A program made the position numbers and the translations under genes. Source: Betaproteobacteria bacterium (GTDB lineage: Bacteria > Pseudomonadota > Gammaproteobacteria > Burkholderiales > Casimicrobiaceae). Taken from it: DNA of 64,000 bases. Location of the stretch: the NCBI GenBank assembly GCA_013298765.1, contig JAAFJA010000007.1, positions 1 to 64,000 of the forward strand. Reading direction: 5' to 3'. The notes under the pieces were generated by a model. It searched no databases and had not been told where the DNA came from. It saw only the letters and a program-made list of their open reading frames with translations. Below, piece by piece: positions 3,521 through 64,000 of this stretch (within the stretch, counting starts at the first letter, position 1; each line of letters opens with the position of its first letter).

Positions 3521-3550
3521 GTCGAGATGGCAATGGCTGTCGATCCACAT
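3521..3550. repeat. 30-bp exact direct repeat, copy B (a tatD 5'-end remnant)
   Basis: Identical to 1087-1116. On the minus strand it reads ATG TGG ATC GAC AGC CAT TGC CAT CTC GAC TAG, which translates to MWIDSHCHLD followed by a stop. It is therefore an orphan 10-codon copy of the tatD start. Confidence 0.9.
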
Positions 3551-3568
3551 TTAGCGAGAACTGCAAGA

Positions 3569-4075
3569 CTACTCTGCGGCCTTGAGTTCCTCGATAATCC
3601 TTGCGCTACGCGCCCTAATGCGCTCCATCATTGGTGGCATTAGCGATTGCATCATCGGGGCTGATTGCGATATCACCTGCGGTGCTTTCTGCGCAAACGC
3701 AATGCCCGCTGGCGAACGATAAAAGTCGCGAATTCCGCGCAATTCATCTAACGTATAAACAGTCGCATAGGCGTCCAGCATCGAAGCTTTTACCTTGCCA
3801 AGAAAATCCGCGCCCATCATGTCATCAGTAAATTCCGTCATATGGCGCTGCAAAATTTCCTGCTGCTTGGAGTTGAGCTTTTGACCACTGACTTGTTTTT
3901 GCAAGTTTTGTAGCGTGGGGGTCATGAGTTGTCGCACGCTTTGGGCCAGTGACTCGCTCGCGGTCAGATCCAAAACTTCTTGTGCAAGTTGTTTCGCTTC
4001 TGCCGAGGGCTGCGCATATGAAGGGGCGCTTGTGGCGAGAAGAAACGATGCGAGGAGTAGAGCGCGTAGTTTCAT
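3569..4075 (-). CDS. DUF2059-family periplasmic protein
   Basis: 168-aa ORF with a signal peptide (MKLRALLLASFLLATSAPSYA). It is helical and Q/L-rich, with the LDELRGIRDFYRSPAG motif typical of DUF2059. Confidence 0.7.
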   Translation of the reverse strand: MKLRALLLASFLLATSAPSYAQPSAEAKQLAQEVLDLTASESLAQSVRQLMTPTLQNLQKQVSGQKLNSKQQEILQRHMTEFTDDMMGADFLGKVKASMLDAYATVYTLDELRGIRDFYRSPAGIAFAQKAPQVISQSAPMMQSLMPPMMERIRARSARIIEELKAAE

Positions 4076-4136: not shown

Positions 4137-5765
4137 TCAAATGGCAATAGCGTTGAAACTCAACCCAAACCGCGCCAAATACTTGCGCAACCGATCCGCG
4201 TCGTTCACTTCGCTTCGCTCTTCGCGCGAGACGTTGTAGAGCTTGCGACCCGCATCCGAGAGCGTGCGGCTTTGTTTGCACACGCGAATTACCGCTTCGA
4301 GTTGCAGGCGATCGAAGAGATCGAGTTTTGCGAGTGCGGCTTCGTCGACATAGCGTTCGAGCTCGACGCTTTGCGCGTTGCTCGTCGATGCGTCTTTCGC
4401 CCAAAGCCATTTGAGCCGCTCGATTTCCGCATCGACCACGGCCTCGGTGATGCGCCCGCCGTCGGCGAGTGTGGCCATGCGAGTCACACTTGCGGATAGA
4501 TCACGAAAATTGCCTCTCCACGCGCCATTTACACCGGACGCGAAGCTCATATAACGCTTTTTCGCTTCTACATTGAATCGAGCCTGTTGCCCGATATCTT
4601 TTGGGCTAAGTGACAATAGGTAATCTACGTTCGGCTCAATGTCTTCGGGTCGCTCGGCAAGGCCGGGCAAGGTGTAACTCCAGAGATTGATCCGCGCGAA
4701 CAAATCCTCTCGAAACTCGCCGCGCGCGACCGCATCGCGCAGATCGAGATTGGTGCCTGCGATCAACTGGAAATCGCTCGCAACTTCTTTGTCTGCACCG
4801 ACTGGATAGAAGCGTTTGTCTTCAATCGCTTTGAGCAGCATCGCTTGTTCATCAAGCCCGAGCGTGCCGATCTCATCGAGAAAGAGCACGCCTTTGTCAG
4901 CGCTGCGAAGCAAGCCCGCGCGATCGGCCATCGCGCCCGTGAACGCGCCCTTTTTGTGACCGAACAAGGTGGACGCGGCGCCGTCGCCCATGAGCGTTGC
5001 GCAATTCACTTCAACGAATTCGCCAGTGACGTTGTGTCGCTCTTTCTTCAATTCGTAAATGCGCTTCGCGAGGAAACTTTTCCCCGCGCCGGTGGGGCCG
5101 GTCAGCAACACTGGCGCACTTGATCGCAGCGCCACGTGTTCAATCTCATCGATCAAGGCGTTGAAGCGTTTGTTCTTCGTTGCGATGCCGCTTTTCAAGT
5201 AGCGCTTCGCATCGTCCGTCGCGATCGCAAAGCGTTTCGCAATCGCGTCATAGCGCGAAAGATCAAGATCGATCAGCGCATAGCTGCCCGGATCGCCTTC
5301 GCGCTGCGGGCGTGGCGGCGCGGTTTGCAGGAGCACACCCGGTAGCACGCGCGCCTCTGCAAGCAAGAACAAACAAATCTGCGCGACGTGCGTGCCCGTC
5401 GTGATGTGAATCCAATAATCCGATTGCTCCGGATCAAGCTTCTGCGCATGCGCCCAATCAAAGAGCGCGCCATACATCTCACCGAAATCCCAAGGATCGC
5501 GCACGGGCAGCGCATGCAAGGTGACGCGCGTATCCGGGCTCACGAGCGCGATGTCTGCCACCACTTGCTCCGCAATCCGCTCATGCCCCGGCGAATGCAA
5601 CAGCTCAATCGCATCAATCGCGACATCTTCGTGCTGCACGATAGAAATGGTCGGCCGCCACTTTTGCCAACGACCACGACCGCCGCCTGCATCAAGCTGC
5701 GAGCCTAGGAAGCCGATGACGGTGGTGGGTTTGGTGGTTGGTTGTGACACTCTTTGCTGCTCCAT
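4137..5765 (-). CDS. rtcR: sigma54-dependent transcriptional activator RtcR (CARF-like N-terminal domain + AAA+ domain + C-terminal HTH)
   Basis: Collinear with E. coli RtcR throughout (WRPT, HITTGTHVAQIC, IDLDLSRY, GPTGAGKSF, GAFTGA, FLDEIG, ATWRGNFRELSASVTRMAT, NDADRLRKYLARFGL). The start was chosen at MEQQRV (5765). An alternative upstream ATG lies at 5798. Confidence 0.9.
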   Translation of the reverse strand: MEQQRVSQPTTKPTTVIGFLGSQLDAGGGRGRWQKWRPTISIVQHEDVAIDAIELLHSPGHERIAEQVVADIALVSPDTRVTLHALPVRDPWDFGEMYGALFDWAHAQKLDPEQSDYWIHITTGTHVAQICLFLLAEARVLPGVLLQTAPPRPQREGDPGSYALIDLDLSRYDAIAKRFAIATDDAKRYLKSGIATKNKRFNALIDEIEHVALRSSAPVLLTGPTGAGKSFLAKRIYELKKERHNVTGEFVEVNCATLMGDGAASTLFGHKKGAFTGAMADRAGLLRSADKGVLFLDEIGTLGLDEQAMLLKAIEDKRFYPVGADKEVASDFQLIAGTNLDLRDAVARGEFREDLFARINLWSYTLPGLAERPEDIEPNVDYLLSLSPKDIGQQARFNVEAKKRYMSFASGVNGAWRGNFRDLSASVTRMATLADGGRITEAVVDAEIERLKWLWAKDASTSNAQSVELERYVDEAALAKLDLFDRLQLEAVIRVCKQSRTLSDAGRKLYNVSREERSEVNDADRLRKYLARFGLSFNAIAI

Positions 5766-5815
5766 GCTCCCTCTAGTGCTGGGTTCCTTGCACCACACCT
5801 CAATCTGTCATCCCC

Positions 5816-5914
5816 GCGGAGGCGGGGACCCAGACCGAGACGGTCGAGAAACTACGATCATTTGATCAACAGCAATCTGCCCGGTCTGGGTTCCCGCCTT
5901 CGCGGGAATGACGA
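5816..5914. repeat. inverted-repeat pair of GC-rich palindromic units (tgtcatccccgcggaggcggggacccagaccg / cggtctgggttcccgccttcgcgggaatgacg)
   Basis: Arms of 32 nt at 5816-5847 and 5882-5914 are reverse complements with 3-4 mismatches. Each arm is itself palindromic (CCCGCG..GCGGG). The pair lies in the rtcR / rtc-operon divergent intergenic region. Confidence 0.75.
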
Positions 5915-6064
5915 CAGCGGGTTAGCTATTTTGCTATTGAACGTGCTTTCAAGCTAGTTGCGCAGTGAATTGACTCACGTGCGGCGCCAGCAAACGTGAG
6001 CAAATCAGAAAAGTAATTAAATAAATCAATGGTTTACGGTTGGCAGCCGCTGCGATACACGATC

Positions 6065-6080
6065 TGGCACGCTCGCTGCA
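6065..6080 (+). promoter_or_regulatory. sigma54 (RpoN) -24/-12 promoter for the RtcR-controlled operon
   Basis: The sequence is cTGGCACgctcgcTGCAa. The GG sits at 6066-6067 and the GC at 6078-6079, giving the canonical 12-nt spacing. It matches TGGCACG-N4-TTGCW apart from a single T-to-C change. It lies about 300 nt upstream of the divergent rtcR and points toward the SPFH-ankyrin-rtcB genes. Confidence 0.75.
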
Positions 6081-6091
6081 ATAAGAAAAGC

Positions 6092-6655
6092 GTCAAACAG
6101 AAAACATGATGCGCTTACAGGTTCTAGGGGTTTGCTCCCCACCGGTGCGCGATGCCTCGAATGGTTCGAGTTGCGTGTTGCGTATGCCGCCGCATGTGGA
6201 CTGCTTGATATGAAGTTCTCTTGGTGACAGCGGCAACGCTGTTGGGTTCGATTCCCTTGAATTTCTCCTTTTGGATAGCTCAATCGGCAGAGCAATCGAC
6301 CACGAATCGATATGTAGCGGGTTCGAATCCCGTTCCAAAACCTGGCCTGAAACGCCATGATGAAACCCGAGCCGCAAGGCTCACCGCCGAATGCAGATCG
6401 GCAACGCGGACAACGAAGCATCGAAACACGAAAGCGAATCGATGCTGCGGTGGAAGCGAAGGCGATTTGTCAGCCCGCGCGCTCTGCGATATGCGAGAGG
6501 CGAGGACGAACGGCACGGCAGCGTTGTTAGTAACGCGTTCGATGCAGTTTGATCGAACGCGAAGCAAGCGACAACACCGTTGCTCAACGTTCAACGCAAG
6601 CGAATCCCGCGAGCGGACTGTAACGGCAACACTCACGAATAAAGAAAGAACAACA
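6092..6655 (+). ncRNA. structured 5' leader / candidate ncRNA region between the sigma54 promoter and the first CDS
   Basis: About 560 nt with no convincing CDS. The overlapping ORF translation is low-complexity and R/T-rich. The region contains the tRNA-like element and several perfect hairpins (GCATCGA..TCGATGC at 6419-6446; CGTTCGAT..ATCGAACG at 6536-6559). Confidence 0.4.
6269..6341 (+). tRNA. tRNA-like cloverleaf, Arg(ACG)-type but atypical; a possible pseudo-tRNA or Y-RNA-like tRNA mimic in the rtc operon leader
   Basis: Manual fold. The acceptor stem TTTTGGA/TCCAAAA has 7 bp. Positions 8-9 are U8 and A9. The D-arm is GCTC-AATCGGCA-GAGC and includes GG. The anticodon stem is ATCGA/TCGAT with loop CCACGAA, so the anticodon is ACG but position 33 is C rather than U. 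The variable loop is ATGTA. The T-arm is GCGGG-TTCGAAT-CCCGT. The discriminator is C and no CCA is encoded. The AT-rich acceptor stem is anomalous for this GC-rich genome. Confidence 0.5.
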
Positions 6656-7795
6656 ATGATGAATCTAAACAAAATCAATGTGCGCAAAACCGAACGTGCA
6701 GTACTTTTGCGCAATGGCGATTTCGAGCGCGTGCTCGCGCCGGGTCAATACTGGTTTCCTACGCTCTTCGACAAGATTGTCGTGGAGCGAAAAGAGGTAG
6801 CACAGCCACTCTACATCGGCGCTGCTGCTGACTACCTGCTCGCAACGCCTACCGATTCGGCAAACGAGCACTTCGTGCGTGTTGAATTGAACGATACGCA
6901 AGCTGGCTTGTTGTACGAAAACGATTCGCTCGTCGAACTTTTGCCGCCTGCGACGCGTCGCTTGTATTGGAAGACTTCGGCAAACGTGCGCGTTGAAACC
7001 GTTGAGCTTTCGGGTGAAGGCGAGCTTGCGAAAGACTTGGTTGCAAAGATCACGCATTCGCAATTGAAGCGTCGCGCGGTTGCTGGTTTGCAAGCGGTGT
7101 TGCAAGTGCAAGTGCCGGAATACAACATCGGCTTGCTTGTGATCGACGGGAAACTTGTTCGCATGCTGGAAGCGGGTTCGTATGCGTTTTGGCGATTTAA
7201 CCGTAGCGTTACGGTGGAGTTCGTCGATTTGCGTGTGCAAGCGCTTGAAGTCACCGGTCAAGAAATCTTGACGCGAGACAAAGTGGCGCTACGACTCAAC
7301 CTGGGCGCAACGTGGCGTTATGCGGACGTGTTGAAAGCGTTCGCGATGACTGCGAAACCGTTGGATAACCTCTATCGCGAATTGCAGTTTGCATTGCGCG
7401 CCGCAGTGGGCACGCAATCGCTCGACGAGTTGCTGGAAAACAAAACGGCACTCAATGAGAAGGTTAAAGTCGCAGTGCGCGAGCGCATGGCGAGCGCAGG
7501 TATCGCGCTTGAGGCAGTGGGTGTGAAAGACATCATCCTGCCTGGCGAGATGAAAGCGATCCTCGCGCAAGTCGTAGAAGCGGAAAAAGTCGCGCAAGCC
7601 AACTTGATCCGTCGCCGCGAAGAAACCGCTGCATCGCGCTCGCTCTTGAACACAGCGAAAGTGATGGAAGACAACCCAGTGGCGCTACGCTTGAAAGAGC
7701 TAGAAACCCTGGAACGCGTCGCGGAACGCATCGACAAAATCTCCGTGTTTGGAGGTTTGGACGGTGTGTTGAACGCGTTGGCGAAAGTGAAGTAG
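6656..7795 (+). CDS. SPFH/band-7 (stomatin/flotillin-like) domain protein
   Basis: About 379 aa starting at the ATGATG after aaagaaagaacaaca. The SPFH domain is indicated by the pattern LYENDSL..RRLYW... and long coiled-coil/EA-rich helices (ILAQVVEAEKVAQANLIRRREE). No N-terminal TM segment is evident. Confidence 0.75.
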   Translation: MMNLNKINVRKTERAVLLRNGDFERVLAPGQYWFPTLFDKIVVERKEVAQPLYIGAAADYLLATPTDSANEHFVRVELNDTQAGLLYENDSLVELLPPATRRLYWKTSANVRVETVELSGEGELAKDLVAKITHSQLKRRAVAGLQAVLQVQVPEYNIGLLVIDGKLVRMLEAGSYAFWRFNRSVTVEFVDLRVQALEVTGQEILTRDKVALRLNLGATWRYADVLKAFAMTAKPLDNLYRELQFALRAAVGTQSLDELLENKTALNEKVKVAVRERMASAGIALEAVGVKDIILPGEMKAILAQVVEAEKVAQANLIRRREETAASRSLLNTAKVMEDNPVALRLKELETLERVAERIDKISVFGGLDGVLNALAKVK

Positions 7796-7937: not shown

Positions 7938-8474
7938 ATGAACGACTACGACTACATCATCAACAGCTTACAAAACGAGTCGATCACCGAATGGGAAGAG
8001 TTGGCGTTGATTGTTGACGATTTCCCCGGTGGGGTCGATTGGTGGTTGGGGCGACGTTGGATCATCAATGCAATTGATTTGTCCCCGTTGAGCGCAATCG
8101 AATGGATGCTCACGAAAGGGATAAACCTTCGATTCCGTGACGGCGAAGGCTATACGCCGTTACATTCAGCGGTAGAGCGTAGATTCGATGATCGCGTTCA
8201 AGTGATAAGTGCATTAGTGGGAGCGGGTGCAAATGTCGACGAGATTGGTCGTGAAACGACTACCCCTCTCTTATTCGCGCTCGAAATGAAGCGAAACGAG
8301 TGCGCACTTGCACTTTTGCAACTCGGCGCAAACGTCCACGTTCAAACACTGATCGATTGGTATGAATCCCCGCTCGAGTACGCGCAGCGCACGAAACATG
8401 AGCTGTTGCCTCAACTTGAAAATGCCGCTGCGCGAAAAACTCGCGAATTCGGGGCCAAAGTGAAAACAGCATGA
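7938..8474 (+). CDS. ankyrin-repeat protein
   Basis: 178 aa with three ANK-like units (GYTPLHSAVERRFDDRVQVISALVGAGANVDE; TTPLLFALEMKRNECALALLQLGANVHV). GC is about 50%, below the window background. Its stop overlaps the rtcB start (ATGA). Confidence 0.8.
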   Translation: MNDYDYIINSLQNESITEWEELALIVDDFPGGVDWWLGRRWIINAIDLSPLSAIEWMLTKGINLRFRDGEGYTPLHSAVERRFDDRVQVISALVGAGANVDEIGRETTTPLLFALEMKRNECALALLQLGANVHVQTLIDWYESPLEYAQRTKHELLPQLENAAARKTREFGAKVKTA

Positions 8475-9688
8475 AAAACTACAACGAAATCCAAACCGAA
8501 AACGTCCCGATCAAAATGTGGACGAAGGGCGTGCCTGTTGAGGACGACGCTCAGAAGCAATTGCTCAACGCTTCGAAGTTGCCGATTGTGTTTAAGCACA
8601 TCGCTGCGATGCCGGACGTGCATTTGGGGATTGGTGCGACTGTGGGCTCGGTGATTCCTACGCTGCGGGCGATCATTCCGGCGGCCGTCGGCGTGGACAT
8701 CGGTTGCGGGATGATTGCTTGCAAGACGACGTTAACCGCGAGCGACTTGCCGGATAACTTGTTGCCGCTTCGTAGCGCGATTGAGCGCTCGGTGCCGCAC
8801 GGGCGCGTGGCGATGCGCGGGAAGCGAGACACCGGCGCGTGGGACAGCCCGCCCGAGGAAGCGGATGCTGCGTGGGCGAAACTTGCATCGGGTTTTGATG
8901 AGATCACCGAGGTTGAGCCGCGCTTGAAAAACACGAACAACCGAAAGCATTTGGGAACGCTTGGAACGGGTAACCATTTCATCGAAATTTGTCTCGATGA
9001 GAAGCAGGCGGTTTGGATCATGCTGCATTCGGGTTCGCGCGGCGTGGGTAACGCGATCGGAACGCTCTACATTGAGCGCGCTCGCGAAGAAGCGATCAAG
9101 CACAACATGAATTTGCCTGACAAAGATTTGGCGTATTTCGAAGAAGGCTCGAAGTATTTCGGCGACTACGTGCGCGGCGTGAGCTGGGCGCAGCAATTCG
9201 CGAAACTAAATCGCGAAGTGATGATGCAGCGCGTGATTGCGGCGATGAAAACCGTGATCGCGAAGCCGTTTGAGACGCATCTGGAAGCGGTGAACTGTCA
9301 TCACAACTATGTGCAACGCGAAACGCATTTCGGCGAAGCCGTGTTCGTGACGCGCAAGGGCGCGGTGAGCGCAAAGGCGGGTGAACTCGGCATCATCCCG
9401 GGTTCGATGGGCGCGAAGAGCTACATCGTGCGCGGAAAAGGCAATCCGGAAAGCTTCATGTCATGCAGCCACGGCGCAGGCCGCACGATGAGTCGCACGC
9501 AAGCGAAAAAGCGCTTCACGCTCGCCGATCACATCAAAGCGACCGAAGGCGTGGAATGCCGAAAAGACGAGGATGTGATCGACGAGATTCCGATGGCGTA
9601 CAAAGACATCGACGCGGTGATGGAAGCGCAGCGGGATTTGGTGGATGTGGTTTATACGTTGAAGCAGGTGGTTTGTGTGAAGGGGTGA
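8471..9688 (+). CDS. rtcB: RNA-splicing ligase RtcB (3'-phosphate/5'-OH RNA ligase)
   Basis: 405 aa. The N-terminus ...PIKMWTKGVPVEDDAQKQLLNASKLPIVFKHIAAMPDVHLGIGATVGSVIPT is near-identical to the E. coli RtcB N-terminus. The metal-ligand and catalytic His regions (GTGNHFIE, SCSHGAGR) are conserved. Confidence 0.95.
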   Translation: MKNYNEIQTENVPIKMWTKGVPVEDDAQKQLLNASKLPIVFKHIAAMPDVHLGIGATVGSVIPTLRAIIPAAVGVDIGCGMIACKTTLTASDLPDNLLPLRSAIERSVPHGRVAMRGKRDTGAWDSPPEEADAAWAKLASGFDEITEVEPRLKNTNNRKHLGTLGTGNHFIEICLDEKQAVWIMLHSGSRGVGNAIGTLYIERAREEAIKHNMNLPDKDLAYFEEGSKYFGDYVRGVSWAQQFAKLNREVMMQRVIAAMKTVIAKPFETHLEAVNCHHNYVQRETHFGEAVFVTRKGAVSAKAGELGIIPGSMGAKSYIVRGKGNPESFMSCSHGAGRTMSRTQAKKRFTLADHIKATEGVECRKDEDVIDEIPMAYKDIDAVMEAQRDLVDVVYTLKQVVCVKG

Positions 9689-9691
9689 GGG

Positions 9692-10417
9692 ATGCAAGTA
9701 GATATCAATGCGCGCTATACGGACTTAGTGGTTCGCTCGGAGCGGACGTGGCAGGAAGCATTGCTATTGTTTGACCGACTGAATCGAAATAGAGAAGTAC
9801 TGAGCAGAATCGAGGAAGATGAACTAAGGAGTAATCCACCTCCTATTCATTTCATGCGAAAGCGAAAAAGCGAGTGGCGCGACGAAGCTATCGCGGCAAA
9901 CGCGGAGAGGCTACTTGAGATTGCATCGCGAACCGCATTGGTTTTCGGGCACTCCGCGTTGGACGCAGCACTAAACGATTTTCTGTGTTTTTGTGCGACC
10001 CTCGACGGCAGCGCTTTCGATTTTCATGTTCAGGAGCGAAAATTGCCCGCGAAGGAATTTCTTTCTAAGAGTGGTTCAGAACTCAGAGCAGCGCTTATTG
10101 ACCGATTCCTGAAAGAATCCTCAAGAGAACCAATTTTGAAAAGAATTTCGATACTTTTGTCGATTTGCAAGCCAACGGCTCAGCATTTCAGCGATGTTGT
10201 CTACCCAGAGTTTGTCTACGAGCAATCGCGAGTGGAGCAAATCGACCATTTGCGGCATCAGGTGATTCACCGAGGCGCGATACCAAGCATTAACTACGAT
10301 GACACGCTTTATCTTTACATGATCACACGCTTGGTCTATCGCGTAGTTACCTCGCTGCGCCCGGTCACATTCGATTTAGATCTTGCGATAAGAACCTCCA
10401 CTAACCTGAAGAGCTAG
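9692..10417 (+). CDS. hypothetical protein, low-GC, occupying the position where RtcA is normally found; possible HEPN-like Rx4H motif
   Basis: 241-aa ORF. Its start lies 4 nt after the rtcB stop, with no intervening intergenic region. GC is about 42-48%. No recognisable RtcA motifs are present. The C-terminal region has LRHQVIHRG, an R-x4-H pattern. It is predicted alpha-helical. Confidence 0.55.
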   Translation: MQVDINARYTDLVVRSERTWQEALLLFDRLNRNREVLSRIEEDELRSNPPPIHFMRKRKSEWRDEAIAANAERLLEIASRTALVFGHSALDAALNDFLCFCATLDGSAFDFHVQERKLPAKEFLSKSGSELRAALIDRFLKESSREPILKRISILLSICKPTAQHFSDVVYPEFVYEQSRVEQIDHLRHQVIHRGAIPSINYDDTLYLYMITRLVYRVVTSLRPVTFDLDLAIRTSTNLKS

Positions 10418-60888: not shown

Positions 60889-62220
60889 ATGAAACGAGCC
60901 ATAACCGACCTTCTAGCATCCGACGGCCCGCTCTCGGCACCAGAGGCGGCGCGACGCTTGGGCGTTGACCCGCTGACGATTGCGCGGCAAGCACGCGCGT
61001 CAGCGAGTCGTGTTCTTTCGCTTGGACGCGGCAAAAACACGCGCTATGCAGTGCCCGAGATCGTGGTCACTGGCGCGGCTCAATGGCCGCTCTTTTGGAT
61101 TGACGAGAACGGCCGTGTCACCGAATTCGCAACCGCGTCGTTCGTCAAGCCGCAAACCGTGCATGTGTATGGCAGCGGTATCAACGATGCGTCGCGCGGA
61201 GAGGTCCCGTGGTTTCTATTGCCGCTGATATTGCGCGGCTACCTTGGGCGCGCCGCGCGGTTTCGCTTGGGCGCTGTCGTTCAGTCGTGGGATAGTCACC
61301 CCGAGCGCTGGACGCTCGCGCAGCATGTTTTTGCAATGCAATCGTCCGCGCTTGAACATGCGGGAGCAATCCTCATGGGCGACGATGCGGTTAGCGCTTG
61401 GCAAGCGGCGCAGCAACAAAAGCCGTACCCCGATTCGCCGGAAGCGCTCGCGCAAACGTACGATGCGCTCGCGCATGACGCGATGTCGGGGCGCGTCGCG
61501 GGATCAAGTGCGGATGGGGAGCAGCCTAAATTCAGCACGCGTGTCGTCGATACTAATGGCAACATTCGCGAAGTGTTGGTTAAGTTCTCGCCCCCGCGCG
61601 GCACACCGTTTGGCGAACGTTGGAACGATTTGCTCCACGCCGAAGCAATCGCCGCCGACGTGTTACGTGACCATGGCTTCGCAGTCCCGAATACCCGAAT
61701 CATTCGCAGCGAAAAGCGCACCTATTTCGAATCGGTGCGCATCGATCGCATCGACGCAACTGGACGGCGACATCTGTTACCGCTTCATGCCGTTCACGCC
61801 GCATTTCTTCCAGGGTCGCAACAACACTGGGCTGCGACCGTTGCACAACTCGCCGCGCAAAAACGCATCACCTACCATGCGGTCGCTGCGACGCAAACGC
61901 TCTACGCTTTCGGACAACTCATCGGGAACACCGATATGCATTTCGGCAACTTAGGCATGATCGCCGAGTCGCCGCAGGAAATCGCAAAAGGGCGTTTCAA
62001 ACTCGCTCCGTGTTACGACATGCTGCCGATGCGGTTCGCGCCTGGGGCGCATAGCGATTTGGAGTACACGGCGTTTGGTGTGGAATTGAATGCAGCGTTG
62101 CCAGAGGGCGTCGCAAGCACTGCGCGCGCCATGGCAAAAGAATTTTGGCGGCGCGTTTCTGATGAAACACAAGTGAGCGCGAGCTGGCGCGAGTTCGCAC
62201 TTGGACGCGCTGCCGCTTAA
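60889..62220 (+). CDS. HipA-like Ser/Thr kinase with an N-terminal HTH domain (YjjJ/HipH-like toxin family)
   Basis: 443 aa. An N-terminal HTH-like region (SAPEAARRLGVDPLTIARQARA) precedes a HipA-like core with the catalytic-loop motif GNTDMHFGN. It is preceded by an AT-rich promoter region. Confidence 0.7.
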   Translation: MKRAITDLLASDGPLSAPEAARRLGVDPLTIARQARASASRVLSLGRGKNTRYAVPEIVVTGAAQWPLFWIDENGRVTEFATASFVKPQTVHVYGSGINDASRGEVPWFLLPLILRGYLGRAARFRLGAVVQSWDSHPERWTLAQHVFAMQSSALEHAGAILMGDDAVSAWQAAQQQKPYPDSPEALAQTYDALAHDAMSGRVAGSSADGEQPKFSTRVVDTNGNIREVLVKFSPPRGTPFGERWNDLLHAEAIAADVLRDHGFAVPNTRIIRSEKRTYFESVRIDRIDATGRRHLLPLHAVHAAFLPGSQQHWAATVAQLAAQKRITYHAVAATQTLYAFGQLIGNTDMHFGNLGMIAESPQEIAKGRFKLAPCYDMLPMRFAPGAHSDLEYTAFGVELNAALPEGVASTARAMAKEFWRRVSDETQVSASWREFALGRAAA

Positions 62221-64000
62221 GCCTTCGCAAACTCTGTCCGATGCGCAATCCATCGCGCTAGAAACGCTGCGCGATGGAATGCCGGGTCGTTATCGAGTTG
62301 ATTTGCGGCATTGCGCGCGGCTTCGACGAGGTCGATGTCTTCTTCGATGTTCGCGTAGCGAAGCCCCGGTACGCCGGACTGCCTTGGGCCAAGCAATTCG
62401 CCAGGGCCCCGAATGCGCAGATCTTCTCTGGCGATCACGAAGCCATCGGTGGTTTCGTAGATGACTTTGAGGCGTTGCTTGGCGGTGTCGGAGAGTTTGT
62501 CGGCGAAAAGCAGAATGCAAGTGGACGCCGCACTGCCGCGCCCCACGCGTCCGCGTAGCTGATGCAGTTGCGCAAGACCGAAGCGTTCCGCGTGTTCGAT
62601 CACCATCCAACTTGCGTTCGGTACATCGACGCCGACTTCGATGACGGTGGTCGATACGAGCACTTGTACCTTGTTTTCGATGAAGGCTTGCATGATTTCC
62701 GCCTTCTCTTCGGCTTTCATGCGACCGTGCAAGAGCGCGACCTTGACGTTCGGCATCGCTGTGACGAGCTCTGTGTAGAGCGCGGTTGCGTTTTGCAGCT
62801 CGATTTCCATTTTGTCGCTCTCTTCAATGAGCGGACAAACCCAATACGCTTGCGCGTCGGCTTGCGCGGCAGCGTAAATGCGTTCGGCAACCTCGCCGCG
62901 GCGTTTTTCGGAGACGAGTTTGGTGACGATCAGTTGTCGGCCGCTTGGGATTTCGTCGATGACTGAAACATCGAGGTCAGCGTAGTAGCTCATCGCGAGC
63001 GAGCGTGGAATGGGGGTGGCGCTCAGCATTAATGTGTGGGGGGCGAGTTGCTCCCTCCCGTTCAACAGGAGGGCGGGGGTGGGGATGGGGTTGTCTTCTG
63101 GCGCGTTAAACCGGACGCCAACTCCCTCACCCGCCCTTCGGGCACCCTCTCCCAGAGGGAGAGGGACGGTTTTCGAGCGCAATCGCAACCGCTGCTCCAC
63201 GCCAAATCGGTGCTGTTCATCTACGACCACCAAGCCCAATCTTGCAAACGACACTTTCTTCTGAAATAGCGCGTGCGTACCGATGGCGATCTGTGCTTCG
63301 CCTCGCTTGCACTTCTCCTGTGCGGCCTTGAGCTCCGCCGCGGTGAGCGAGCCGGCAAGCCAGGTGAGCTGCACGGGCAAATCTTTGAGCCAGTGCGAGA
63401 GCTTGCGAAAGTGCTGCTCGGCCAGCAGCTCTGTCGGGGCCATGAACGCGACCTGGTAGCCCGCCTCGACACAGGCGAGCGCCGCCAGCGCGGCGACGAT
63501 GGTTTTTCCGCTGCCTACATCGCCTTGAAGTAGGCGTGTCATCGGCACCTCGCGGGCGAGATCGCGCAGCACGTCGGCGACTGCGCGTTCCTGAGCGGCC
63601 GTGAGCGTGAACGGCAAACGCTGCATCATCAATGGTGTGATGAGCTGCGTGGGGCTGATCGATGGCGCGCGCTCGGCGGCGCGAAGCGTTTTCGCATCTT
63701 TGAGCGCGAGCTGTTGTGCGAGTAGCTCATCAAACTTGATACGCCGCCATGCGGGATGCGTTCGCGTTTCAAGCGCGGCAATCGCGTTCACATCGGTGGG
63801 CGCATGGAGCGCGGCAAGCGTCTCCCCCCACTGCAGCAGTTTCATTGAATCTCGCGCCGACGCTGGCAACAGTTCCGACTGCCACTCACGAACCTTGAGC
63901 GCTTTGCTCGCGAGCGTGCGCAATGCTGCCTGAGGAATTCCCGCAGTGGACGGGTAGACAGCCGTAAGCGCTTTCGAACCACTTAATTGGGGCTCAATCT
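62217..64000 (-). CDS. recG: ATP-dependent DNA helicase RecG, partial (N-terminus lies beyond the window end)
   Basis: Helicase motifs are conserved: GDVGSGKT (I), VVDEQHRFGV (II), SATPIPR (III) and the C-terminal QLRGRVGRG (VI). It carries an extra segment of about 35 aa between motifs II and III that derives from a REP element. Confidence 0.9.
   Translation of the reverse strand, partial: IEPQLSGSKALTAVYPSTAGIPQAALRTLASKALKVREWQSELLPASARDSMKLLQWGETLAALHAPTDVNAIAALETRTHPAWRRIKFDELLAQQLALKDAKTLRAAERAPSISPTQLITPLMMQRLPFTLTAAQERAVADVLRDLAREVPMTRLLQGDVGSGKTIVAALAALACVEAGYQVAFMAPTELLAEQHFRKLSHWLKDLPVQLTWLAGSLTAAELKAAQEKCKRGEAQIAIGTHALFQKKVSFARLGLVVVDEQHRFGVEQRLRLRSKTVPLPLGEGARRAGEGVGVRFNAPEDNPIPTPALLLNGREQLAPHTLMLSATPIPRSLAMSYYADLDVSVIDEIPSGRQLIVTKLVSEKRRGEVAERIYAAAQADAQAYWVCPLIEESDKMEIELQNATALYTELVTAMPNVKVALLHGRMKAEEKAEIMQAFIENKVQVLVSTTVIEVGVDVPNASWMVIEHAERFGLAQLHQLRGRVGRGSAASTCILLFADKLSDTAKQRLKVIYETTDGFVIAREDLRIRGPGELLGPRQSGVPGLRYANIEEDIDLVEAARNAANQLDNDPAFHRAAFLARWIAHRTEFAKA
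63045..63175. repeat. REP-like GC-rich palindromic element embedded in-frame within recG
   Basis: It reads ctccctcccgttcaacaggagggcgggggtggggatgggg...ccctctcccagagggagagggac. On the minus strand it translates to ...TVPLPLGEGARRAGEGVGVRFNAPEDNPIPTPALLLNGREQ... inside RecG. Confidence 0.7.

Follow-up and report, generated by a model that had tools for sequence, protein, structure and literature searches.

A conserved multi-domain RNA with two tRNA-like modules heads SPFH–RtcB operons and may partner their products

We analyzed a 64,000-nucleotide (nt) stretch of DNA from a Betaproteobacteria bacterium of the Casimicrobiaceae (assembly GCA_013298765.1, contig JAAFJA010000007.1, positions 1 to 64,000 of the forward strand; hereafter, the window), focusing on the untranslated leader that lies between a sigma54-type promoter and an operon encoding an SPFH/Band-7 protein and the RNA ligase RtcB. 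This leader is a conserved multi-domain noncoding RNA of approximately 535 nt (about 6091–6627, + strand) that is found at more than 80 loci, in RtcB operons, ahead of the SPFH/Band-7 gene. Its modules, in order, are a 5′ junction domain, a mini-tRNA mimic without a D arm, a full cloverleaf mimic, and a three-way junction. The operon itself opens with the SPFH/Band-7 coding sequence (6656–7795, +; Pfam Band_7 4e-31, residues 152–323), the ATG of which at 6656 is preceded by the ribosome-binding site AAAGAAAG (6642–6649, +). It continues with genes for an ankyrin-repeat protein (7938–8474, +; Pfam Ank_2 1.3e-9) and RtcB (8471–9688, +; Pfam RtcB 2.4e-129), followed by an open reading frame (ORF) of 241 amino acids (9692–10417, +) that matched no Pfam family; no rtcA was identified among these four annotated operon ORFs. 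Divergent from the leader is rtcR (4137–5798, −; Pfam RtcR 3.4e-76, Sigma54_activat 3e-49), which encodes a sigma54 enhancer-binding activator. Extra operon genes without a Pfam match vary between lineages: in addition to its ankyrin-repeat gene, the window carries the 241-amino-acid ORF, and the related locus L081 carries ORFs of 270 and 436 amino acids (6202–7014 and 8259–9569).

An earlier, sequence-only reading of this leader, made without database searches, had placed it under a promoter dependent on an enhancer-binding protein. Our analysis bears this out: the element TGGCAC-N6-TGC is found at 6065–6079 (+), with GG at 6066–6067 and GC at 6078–6079, and rtcR diverges from it. The locus combines the features of RtcR/sigma54-controlled rtc operons, i.e., divergent rtcR, −24 GG and −12 GC elements with canonical spacing, and rtcB downstream, and the operon is predicted to depend on RtcR. 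Alignments show that the promoter is kept in close relatives and in rtcR-linked loci. The distance from the −12 GC to the first conserved base of the 5′ domain is 11–13 nt in 41 of 43 matches to the strict promoter pattern, and exactly 12 nt in 36; from this spacing, transcription is predicted to start at about 6091. An inverted repeat, ATTGACTCACGT/ACGTGAGCAAAT (5969–6005), lies 60–95 nt upstream of the −24 element, a position typical of enhancer sites, and is a candidate binding site for RtcR. Further upstream, positions 5807–5912 hold a second inverted repeat with 31-nt arms (90% complementary), a 44-nt spacer, and nested CCCCGC/GCGGGG palindromes. This repeat resembles an insertion of the repetitive extragenic palindromic (REP) or miniature inverted-repeat transposable element (MITE) type between the rtcR start and the promoter, and is absent from the intergenic alignment of relatives.

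The comparative material comprised 80 genome loci, 80 metagenome loci, and 12 closer loci (68–93% identical) obtained by exact-protein look-up. The SPFH protein family is very large (at least 7999 proteins at E ≤ 1e-20); a metagenome scan for closer relatives returned nothing above 66% SPFH identity, and closer loci came only from the look-ups. We used two covariance models, R1, which spans both tRNA-like modules, and R2, which describes the 5′ domain. Pairing percentages were compared with those of slid columns, in which the partner column is shifted, and changes on both sides of a pair were compared with shuffle controls, which ignore phylogeny. A viral origin was considered and set aside, as only one SPFH relative was found in IMG/VR.

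Conservation in the close-relative alignment covers the entire leader rather than its tRNA-like part alone, and broad alignments contain conserved islands all along it. A tRNA-like call lies 250–400 nt upstream of the SPFH gene in most of the 80 genome loci, and two T-arm motifs (GGTTCGANTCC) spaced about 72 nt apart occur in nearly every locus, approximately 350 and 280 nt before the SPFH ATG. The structure is kept with compensatory changes from Comamonadaceae to Pseudomonas, and most tested helices covary well beyond controls. The whole 566-nt leader has a folding z-score (z) of −2.34. Rfam 15 matched only tRNA; this was so for the window, where a search of 1 kb went up to E ≤ 10, and for 13 orthologous loci. 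Four Variovorax loci (L040, L044, L045, and L053; around 3546–3675) differ from the rest in carrying a single T-arm motif, with weak, short R1 matches (32–38 bits, 76–86 nt) and weak or missing 5′-domain matches; in these the RNA is apparently reduced or remodelled.

The leader is noncoding, because the lengths of indels that separate orthologous leaders are hardly ever divisible by three (in the four sets of indels counted, 13/14, 7/7, 19/21, and 18/22 were not). The ORFs that overlap it are unconserved as proteins, in agreement with the initial view that it holds no credible coding sequence. That the RNA is encoded on the + strand follows from its promoter, its likeness to tRNA, and the first pair of arm Y of the 3′ junction described below, which is G-U in 57 of 58 sequences and would read A-C on the opposite strand.

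The 5′ domain (6104–6197, +) is a junction closed by helix P1 (6104–6108/6193–6197 plus 6111–6114/6186–6190) that encloses a P2 hairpin, GGGG/CCCC (6127–6139), and a long P3 hairpin (approximately 6144–6183). Its junction strands are near-invariant, namely GCUUACAGG (GCUYACAGG across loci), CCGGUGC, and AUGCCGC. Model R2 matches the window at 6092–6199 with 65.2 bits and matches 85 of 89 loci, once each, on the + strand and in the expected place, with no other match in 784 kb. In the R2 alignment, 85.6% of pairs are standard compared with 33–53% for slid columns, and none of 500 shuffles reached the observed values; changes on both sides were seen at all five P1 pairs tested and all 13 P3 pairs. 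The picture was similar when 34 sequences were aligned with MAFFT, blind to structure: 79.7% of cells were paired (slid, 35–51%), and 13 of 13 P3 pairs changed on both sides. The minimum-energy fold of the window sequence contains the same helices. Two longer-range pairings of this region were rejected. A helix between UUACAG (6115–6120) and CUGUAA (6618–6623), suggested by the single-sequence fold, is contradicted by loci in which the 5′ motif reads CUCACAG or CCCACGG without compensating 3′ changes, and RNAalifold instead pairs the 3′ CUG with CAG at 6471–6473. Pairing of the 5′-domain CCGGUGC with a 3′ GGCACC tail fails in the window clade, where the tail is GGCAAC and CCGGUGC is unchanged.

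Module 1 (6212–6268, +) is a mini-tRNA without a D arm. Its acceptor stem pairs GAAGUUC with GAAUUUC (6212–6218/6259–6265); a GG linker replaces the D arm, a GCAA-capped stem, ACAGCG/CGCUGU (6227–6242), replaces the anticodon arm, and the T arm GGGUUCGAUUCCC (6244–6256) and a UCC tail (6266–6268) complete it. The minimum-energy fold of 6212–6265 is the proposed structure, which makes up 0.72 of the ensemble (z = −2.16). R1 matches the window at 6211–6340 with 101 bits and matches 76 loci at 60–131 bits. In the alignment of these 76 loci, 93.4% of cells are paired (slid, 35–47%) and 625 cells are changed on both sides compared with 191 in shuffles, none of 500 shuffles reaching 625. All seven acceptor pairs of module 1 covary; 89% of their cells are paired, and as many as six types of pair occur. 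The stem that is GNRA-capped in the window has a 4-nt loop in about half of loci, most commonly GCAA. The tail starts NCC in most orthologs and reads NCCA outright in 19 of 76, compared with UCC in the window. In Pseudomonas, module 1 is a complete cloverleaf including the D arm.

Module 1 recalls minihelix-type mimics and is built in much the manner of the tRNA-like domain of transfer-messenger RNA (tmRNA): it keeps an acceptor stem, a T arm, and an NCC tail, and its D arm and anticodon arm are replaced. It differs from tmRNA in lacking both a tag reading frame and a conserved acceptor identity, given that all seven acceptor pairs vary. ARAGORN found no tmRNA in the window and neither did Rfam.

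Module 2 (6269–6341, +) is the tRNA-like element that the sequence-only reading had recognized, and is a full cloverleaf with 57.9 bits against the full Rfam tRNA model (RF00005). ARAGORN calls it Arg-ACG, and it is the only tRNA call by either program in the 64 kb. Its minimum-energy fold is the cloverleaf, and the conserved tertiary bases U8, A14, G18, and G19 and the T-loop UUCGAAU are present. Through the alignment to R1, which replaced a noisy simple acceptor-stem finder for the module 2 acceptor stems, the anticodon stem was found to covary and the D stem to be invariant. These tRNA calls, together with an apparent Pseudomonas aeruginosa counterpart annotated as tRNA-Arg4, are what would be expected if the leader were simply a normal tRNA-Arg(ACG) gene and a long spacer without special features, in which the hairpins were incidental. 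We regard this account as highly improbable. The anticodon loop, CCACGAA, has C33 rather than U33; where Arg identity calls for A20, the D loop AAUCGGCA has C; the 3′ tail, CCUGG, lacks CCA; and the acceptor stem is AU-rich with U1-A72. Moreover, the loop is 7 nt in just 43 of 76 orthologs, with 21 different triplets, and in others it is a GNRA tetraloop. Given C33, C20, the missing CCA, the 21 'anticodons', and the many loops of other lengths, module 2 is not a decoding tRNA as judged from its sequence. Its flanks are also conserved and covarying, and the sole tRNA call of the window falls inside a sigma54 operon leader.

Two small hairpins link module 2 to the 3′ junction. H1 (6344–6356, +) is weak in the window and a GNRA-capped 4-base-pair (bp) stem in relatives. 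H2 (6369–6382, +), GAGCC-GCAA-GGCUC, is GNRA-capped and covaries; the RNAalifold tables show compensatory changes of AU/GC/UA at its base, and of GC/AU and CG/GU/UA further in.

The 3′ part of the RNA is a three-way junction (6386–6627, +) closed by helix X, which pairs GCCG (6386–6389) with CGGC (6624–6627). The junction strands are AAU (6390–6392) and UAA (6621–6623), and lie within the conserved motifs GCCGAAUG (6386–6393) and CUGUAACGGC (6618–6627). Arm Y (6393–6470, +) is a long irregular stem-loop; arm Z (6471–6620, +) is a rod of about 150 nt closed by CAGCCCGCGCGC/GCGAGCGGACUG. RNAalifold recovered X, Y, and Z from structure-blind alignments of 11 and 58 sequences. In the 58-sequence junction alignment, 95.1% of cells are paired (slid, 29–47%), and 153 cells are changed on both sides compared with a shuffle mean of 46 and maximum of 61. 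A count on 30 sequences gave 96.7% standard pairs (slid, 28–52%), with both-side changes at five of six Y pairs and four of seven Z pairs. Among the 58 loci whose window-type 3′ modules were aligned, the 4-bp core of helix X does not vary. The helix is 7 bp long and covaries in loci of Pseudomonas, Burkholderia, and Rhodocyclales (GCCGGUG/CACCGGC, GCCGGCC/GGCCGGC, GCCGGCG/CGCCGGC), where it always lies 32–44 nt before the ATG. The 3′ motif TGTAACGG is exact in 51 of 88 loci.

The arms themselves fold well. Arm Y has z = −5.60, with none of 200 shuffles folding as well. Since MAFFT leaves the variable hairpin tips unaligned, orthologs were folded one by one: the equivalent of arm Y formed a single stem-loop of 18–78 nt in 30 of 30 orthologs folded alone, with a mean z of −4.1 and 29 of 30 below −2. 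Arm Z has z = −2.39, and the same rod-like layout is seen in three other loci (L081, L082, and L168). A local hairpin proposed for the main group, CCCGC-CGAAC-GCGGG, was rejected, given that locus L004 (GUGCAGC/GCUGCAU) is unable to form it yet keeps helix Y.

The perfect hairpins that first drew attention to the leader, claimed at 6419–6446 and 6536–6559, are real: an exhaustive scan of 6092–6655 returned exactly two, at coordinates within a few bases. Hairpin 1, AGCATCGA/TCGATGCT (6417–6424/6439–6446, +), has 8 bp and a 14-nt loop and forms the tip of arm Y. Hairpin 2, CGCGTTCGAT/ATCGAACGCG (6534–6543/6552–6561, +), has 10 bp and an 8-nt loop and forms the apex of arm Z. Both behave as variable peripheral extensions of the conserved core. 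The arm Y tip changes in sequence and remains paired (GUGAUGC/GCAUCAC in L081), and the arm Z apex changes compensatorily (CAUCGAU-UUCG-AUCGAUG in L168, GUUCGC/GCGAAC in L081, and UUAG-CUUG-CUAA in L086). Compared with 1000 dinucleotide shuffles, the hairpins are in modest excess, with P = 0.025 for at least two hairpins of at least 8 bp and P = 0.017 for at least one of at least 10 bp. Such modest enrichment (P about 0.02), and the nearby REP/MITE-like inverted repeat at 5807–5912, could be read as chance hairpins in a non-functional intergenic region or as a degenerate mobile-element remnant. The hairpin statistic is not decisive; the conservation of structure in 76–85 orthologous loci is. 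The compensatory changes that run from Comamonadaceae to Pseudomonas already contradict the chance or remnant account, and the inverted repeat, situated upstream of the promoter, is not part of the RNA; we give this account next to no credence.

The wider claim of the sequence-only reading, that the structured leader holds one or more noncoding RNAs or a cis-regulator, is thus supported by covarying helices and sequence islands across Burkholderiales, Rhodocyclales, and Pseudomonas loci; orthologous leaders, on which it had proposed to stand or fall, do share structure, including the helices recovered by RNAalifold. Our results refine it in three ways: the hairpins are arm tips of a three-way junction, a second tRNA-like module lies upstream of the first recognized, and a noncoding RNA is better supported than cis-regulation.

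SPFH/Band-7 modules have reportedly been described with 'a novel tRNA-like molecule' as their cognate RNA. This tRNA associated with band-7 (b7a-tRNA), next to Band-7 and RtcB, was predicted by Burroughs and Aravind (NAR 2016), according to the summary in Wang et al. (bioRxiv 10.1101/312249); as summarized there, it lacked experimental validation, and functional redundancy with the Y RNA YrlA was proposed for it. Module 2 of the window fits the description, being a tRNA-like gene (6269–6341) that neighbors a Band-7/SPFH gene, shares its orientation, and lies near rtcB. The b7a-tRNA is, in that summary, a single tRNA-like RNA; here, by contrast, it corresponds to one of four modules of an RNA of about 535 nt. 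Our literature search, which did not take in the original b7a-tRNA paper, turned up no account of the 5′ domain, of module 1, or of the three-way junction, and that paper may describe part of them. Hence one module was previously predicted, and only this one of the four seems to have been described before.

A likely counterpart of module 2 is found in P. aeruginosa. PA4581.1, annotated as tRNA-Arg4, lies between rtcR (PA4581) and the SPFH gene (PA4582), has no CCA and no A20, and has an anticodon printed as CGU; it was detected by quantitative reverse-transcription PCR (qRT-PCR) and ranks with the most strongly up-regulated genes of a late cystic-fibrosis isolate (PMC13637947; PMC8743555). By position and published description, it resembles module 2 in its location, its Arg anticodon (CGU compared with ACG here), and its lack of CCA and A20. 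In these publications, PA4581.1 is discussed as an odd tRNA and the surrounding conserved RNA goes unmentioned, whereas the other Pseudomonas loci in our set have two abutting cloverleaves together with 5′ and 3′ domains. Other literature candidates combining rtcR with a noncoding RNA, including the small RNA NfiR, proved unrelated.

A functional parallel may be the bacterial Y RNAs, which are encoded within about 4 kb of a Ro60/Rsr (TROVE) gene and bind its product. YrlA and YrlB, encoded in rsr-yrlBA-rtcBA operons, have a conserved GNCGAAN0-1G motif thought to contact Ro/Rsr, and YrlA of M. smegmatis is cleaved by RNase P and has CCA added (Chen et al., RNA 2014, PMC4201824). Like them, the leader RNA is an operon-encoded noncoding RNA with predicted RtcR control, next to RtcB, with tRNA-like modules that contain a T arm; T arms are present in both window modules and a D arm in module 2, features through which tRNA enzymes might recognize it. 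The window motif GCCGAAUG (6386–6393), the best-conserved island of the 3′ half, fits GNCGAAN0-1G, and we treat this Y-RNA-like motif as a lead. The two systems differ in several respects. In Y RNAs the motif is near the 5′ end, whereas here it lies 3′ of the tRNA mimics and would be near a 5′ end only if the RNA were cut after module 2. The modules also differ in order and size, the tRNA mimic of the leader forms a complete cloverleaf, and tRNA is the only Rfam family matched.

Vault particles consist of the major vault protein, which has an SPFH-like shoulder, and vault RNA. The AlphaFold model of the window SPFH protein, of moderate quality (predicted local distance difference test score of 68), has about 190 N-terminal residues of repeated beta hairpins, an SPFH domain, and a 40-residue helix. 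With this model, Foldseek retrieved stomatin, HflK/C, prohibitin, and erlin cages over about 250 columns, and the major vault protein over about 470 columns (E about 4e-8). No Pfam match was found outside residues 152–323, and reading of the sequence revealed no membrane-like hydrophobic stretch. A cage-forming protein with a cognate small RNA would be common to both systems if the modeled protein assembles and binds RNA; a scaffold or cage role of the SPFH protein is, on the strength of the model, a lead.

For the leader RNA, these data establish the structure, its conservation, its strand, and its linkage to SPFH and RtcB, usually directly after an RtcR-type sigma54 promoter; transcription start, processing, protein partners, and role are inferred. 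On balance, we lean towards the reading that it is an operon-encoded partner of the SPFH scaffold and RtcB, analogous to Y RNAs with Ro. In Salmonella, RtcR is activated by damaged tRNAs, i.e., tRNA halves whose ends carry a 2′,3′-cyclic phosphate, and YrlA's tRNA-like domain is left uncut by anticodon nuclease (Hughes et al.). By analogy, RNA damage would activate RtcR, and the leader RNA, the first 535 nt or so of an RtcR/sigma54-dependent SPFH-Ank-RtcB operon, would be made along with SPFH and RtcB. Enzymes of tRNA processing, i.e., RNase P and the enzyme that adds CCA, would probably cut it at the tRNA-like modules. The RNA could then be a partner of the SPFH scaffold in the cytoplasm and of the RtcB ligase, serving as a tRNA-shaped platform or decoy that resists nucleases, in the way that Y RNAs serve Ro/Rsr. 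The nuclease resistance suggested here would derive from tRNA bodies that have no conserved or cleavable anticodon loop; the idea of a platform or decoy was also raised for YrlA by Hughes et al.

If the RNA instead stayed on the mRNA, it would be a cis-acting leader that controls the expression or stability of SPFH-RtcB, for example through RNase P cutting at the tRNA-like modules to set the mRNA 5′ end, sensing of tRNA-processing capacity, or ligand binding. Its location between the promoter and first coding sequence would suit such a role, as would the end of helix X 15 nt before the ribosome-binding site and a distance from the second T arm to the ATG that is mostly about 250–430 nt. However, we found no terminator-like site in 5700–6800, and the last 26 nt or so of the leader, including the ribosome-binding site, are unpaired in the minimum-energy fold. 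The Rfam search gave no meaningful match to a riboswitch, T-box, or other leader family even at E ≤ 10. The RNA is also retained in about 25 loci that lack rtcR or the sigma54 promoter, and two tRNA mimics with processing signals exceed the needs of a typical attenuator. We consider cis-regulation unlikely, and a noncoding RNA better supported, because no terminator is predicted, the fold leaves the ribosome-binding site free, and loci lacking the RtcR/sigma54 control region still have the RNA.

The same tRNA-like shapes could serve as a sentinel or feedback substrate. Anticodon nucleases or toxins would cut the modules, and the resulting 2′,3′-cyclic-phosphate fragments would bind the CARF domain of RtcR and sustain induction, or RtcB would reseal them. 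The response of Salmonella RtcR to cyclic-phosphate tRNA halves accords with this, as do the tRNA-shaped modules and the very diverse 'anticodons' of module 2, which would be expected under selection by nucleases. Yet the module 2 loop is not 7 nt in at least 33 of 76 loci and is often a GNRA tetraloop, and module 1 has a GNRA-capped stem here and a 4-nt loop in about half of loci; loops of this tetraloop type leave nucleases no anticodon-loop target. The analogous YrlA domain goes uncleaved, as noted above. Furthermore, the RNA cannot give the first signal, because it is downstream of the RtcR-dependent promoter. This makes a sentinel function quite improbable.

Several observations weigh against the partner reading that we favor. 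The covariance-model alignments are biased toward the modeled structure, though the structure-blind alignments agree with them, and the helix X core and several junction strands lie beyond the reach of the covariation test, because they are invariant in the window-type alignment. The 5′ domain of the window is thermodynamically unexceptional (z only −0.44). The GNCGAAN0-1G match at 6386–6393 is short, with about 0.3 chance matches estimated for a region of this size, and in Pseudomonas and Burkholderia loci the motif is replaced by GCCGGUG, paired with CACCGGC. Neither the operon nor the 10 other large window ORFs that were screened include a Ro/TROVE gene. Evidence for expression is limited to the qRT-PCR and RNA-seq mentions of PA4581.1. 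Finally, the position of the RNA directly before the first coding sequence fits a cis role too.

A more specific proposal, which we offer as speculative and rather doubtful in its full form, is that the leader is the RNA subunit of an uncharacterized ribonucleoprotein. Here, a vault-like cytoplasmic SPFH cage would bind the RNA of about 535 nt or its pieces, module 1 would be matured to a CCA end, and the two nuclease-resistant mimics would, through their tRNA-shaped surfaces, either attract RtcB and enzymes of tRNA processing or sequester anticodon nucleases when toxins or phages attack. If true, this would be a Ro/Y-RNA-independent counterpart of the Rsr-YrlA system.

In rtcR-less loci, the unit of RNA, SPFH, and RtcB is found downstream of 4–12 canonical-looking tRNA genes (L048, L002, L004, L005, L006, L013, L014, L016, L017, L018, L036, and L041). 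Locus L048 (1–3600), for instance, is arranged as six tRNAs, a PcfJ-like gene, six tRNAs, an HNH endonuclease gene, and the leader RNA. The loci with tRNA arrays have no sigma54 promoter; what directly precedes the 5′ domain is instead a hairpin overlapping the stop codon of the HNH gene. This arrangement suggests a tRNA-protection or replacement island, and tRNA arrays ahead of the RNA-SPFH-RtcB unit point to a role in surviving attacks on tRNA. In one Acidovorax metagenome-assembled genome (L023), an RNase P RNA gene (1222–1657, −; Rfam RF00010, 194.8 bits) lies directly downstream of rtcR on the same strand, which is notable in view of the RNase P cutting predicted for the tRNA-like modules but may be coincidence. 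At the far end of the window, and unrelated to the leader RNA, a HipA-like kinase gene (60889–62220) adjoins a DEAD/Cas3-like helicase gene (62217–63923, −).

The rtc operons are widespread stress and RNA-repair systems with poorly understood physiological substrates and cofactors. Those of the SPFH type occur in P. aeruginosa, the Burkholderia cepacia complex, Delftia, Acidovorax, Variovorax, and many environmental beta- and gammaproteobacteria, and are headed by a large, modular, covarying RNA of which Rfam covers only the tRNA-like piece. It has long been proposed that tRNA-like RNAs aid RNA ligation and repair, and this RNA would give that idea a concrete molecule. It also offers an account of the oddly annotated "tRNA" PA4581.1 and may be a tractable parallel to Ro/Y-RNA and vault particles.

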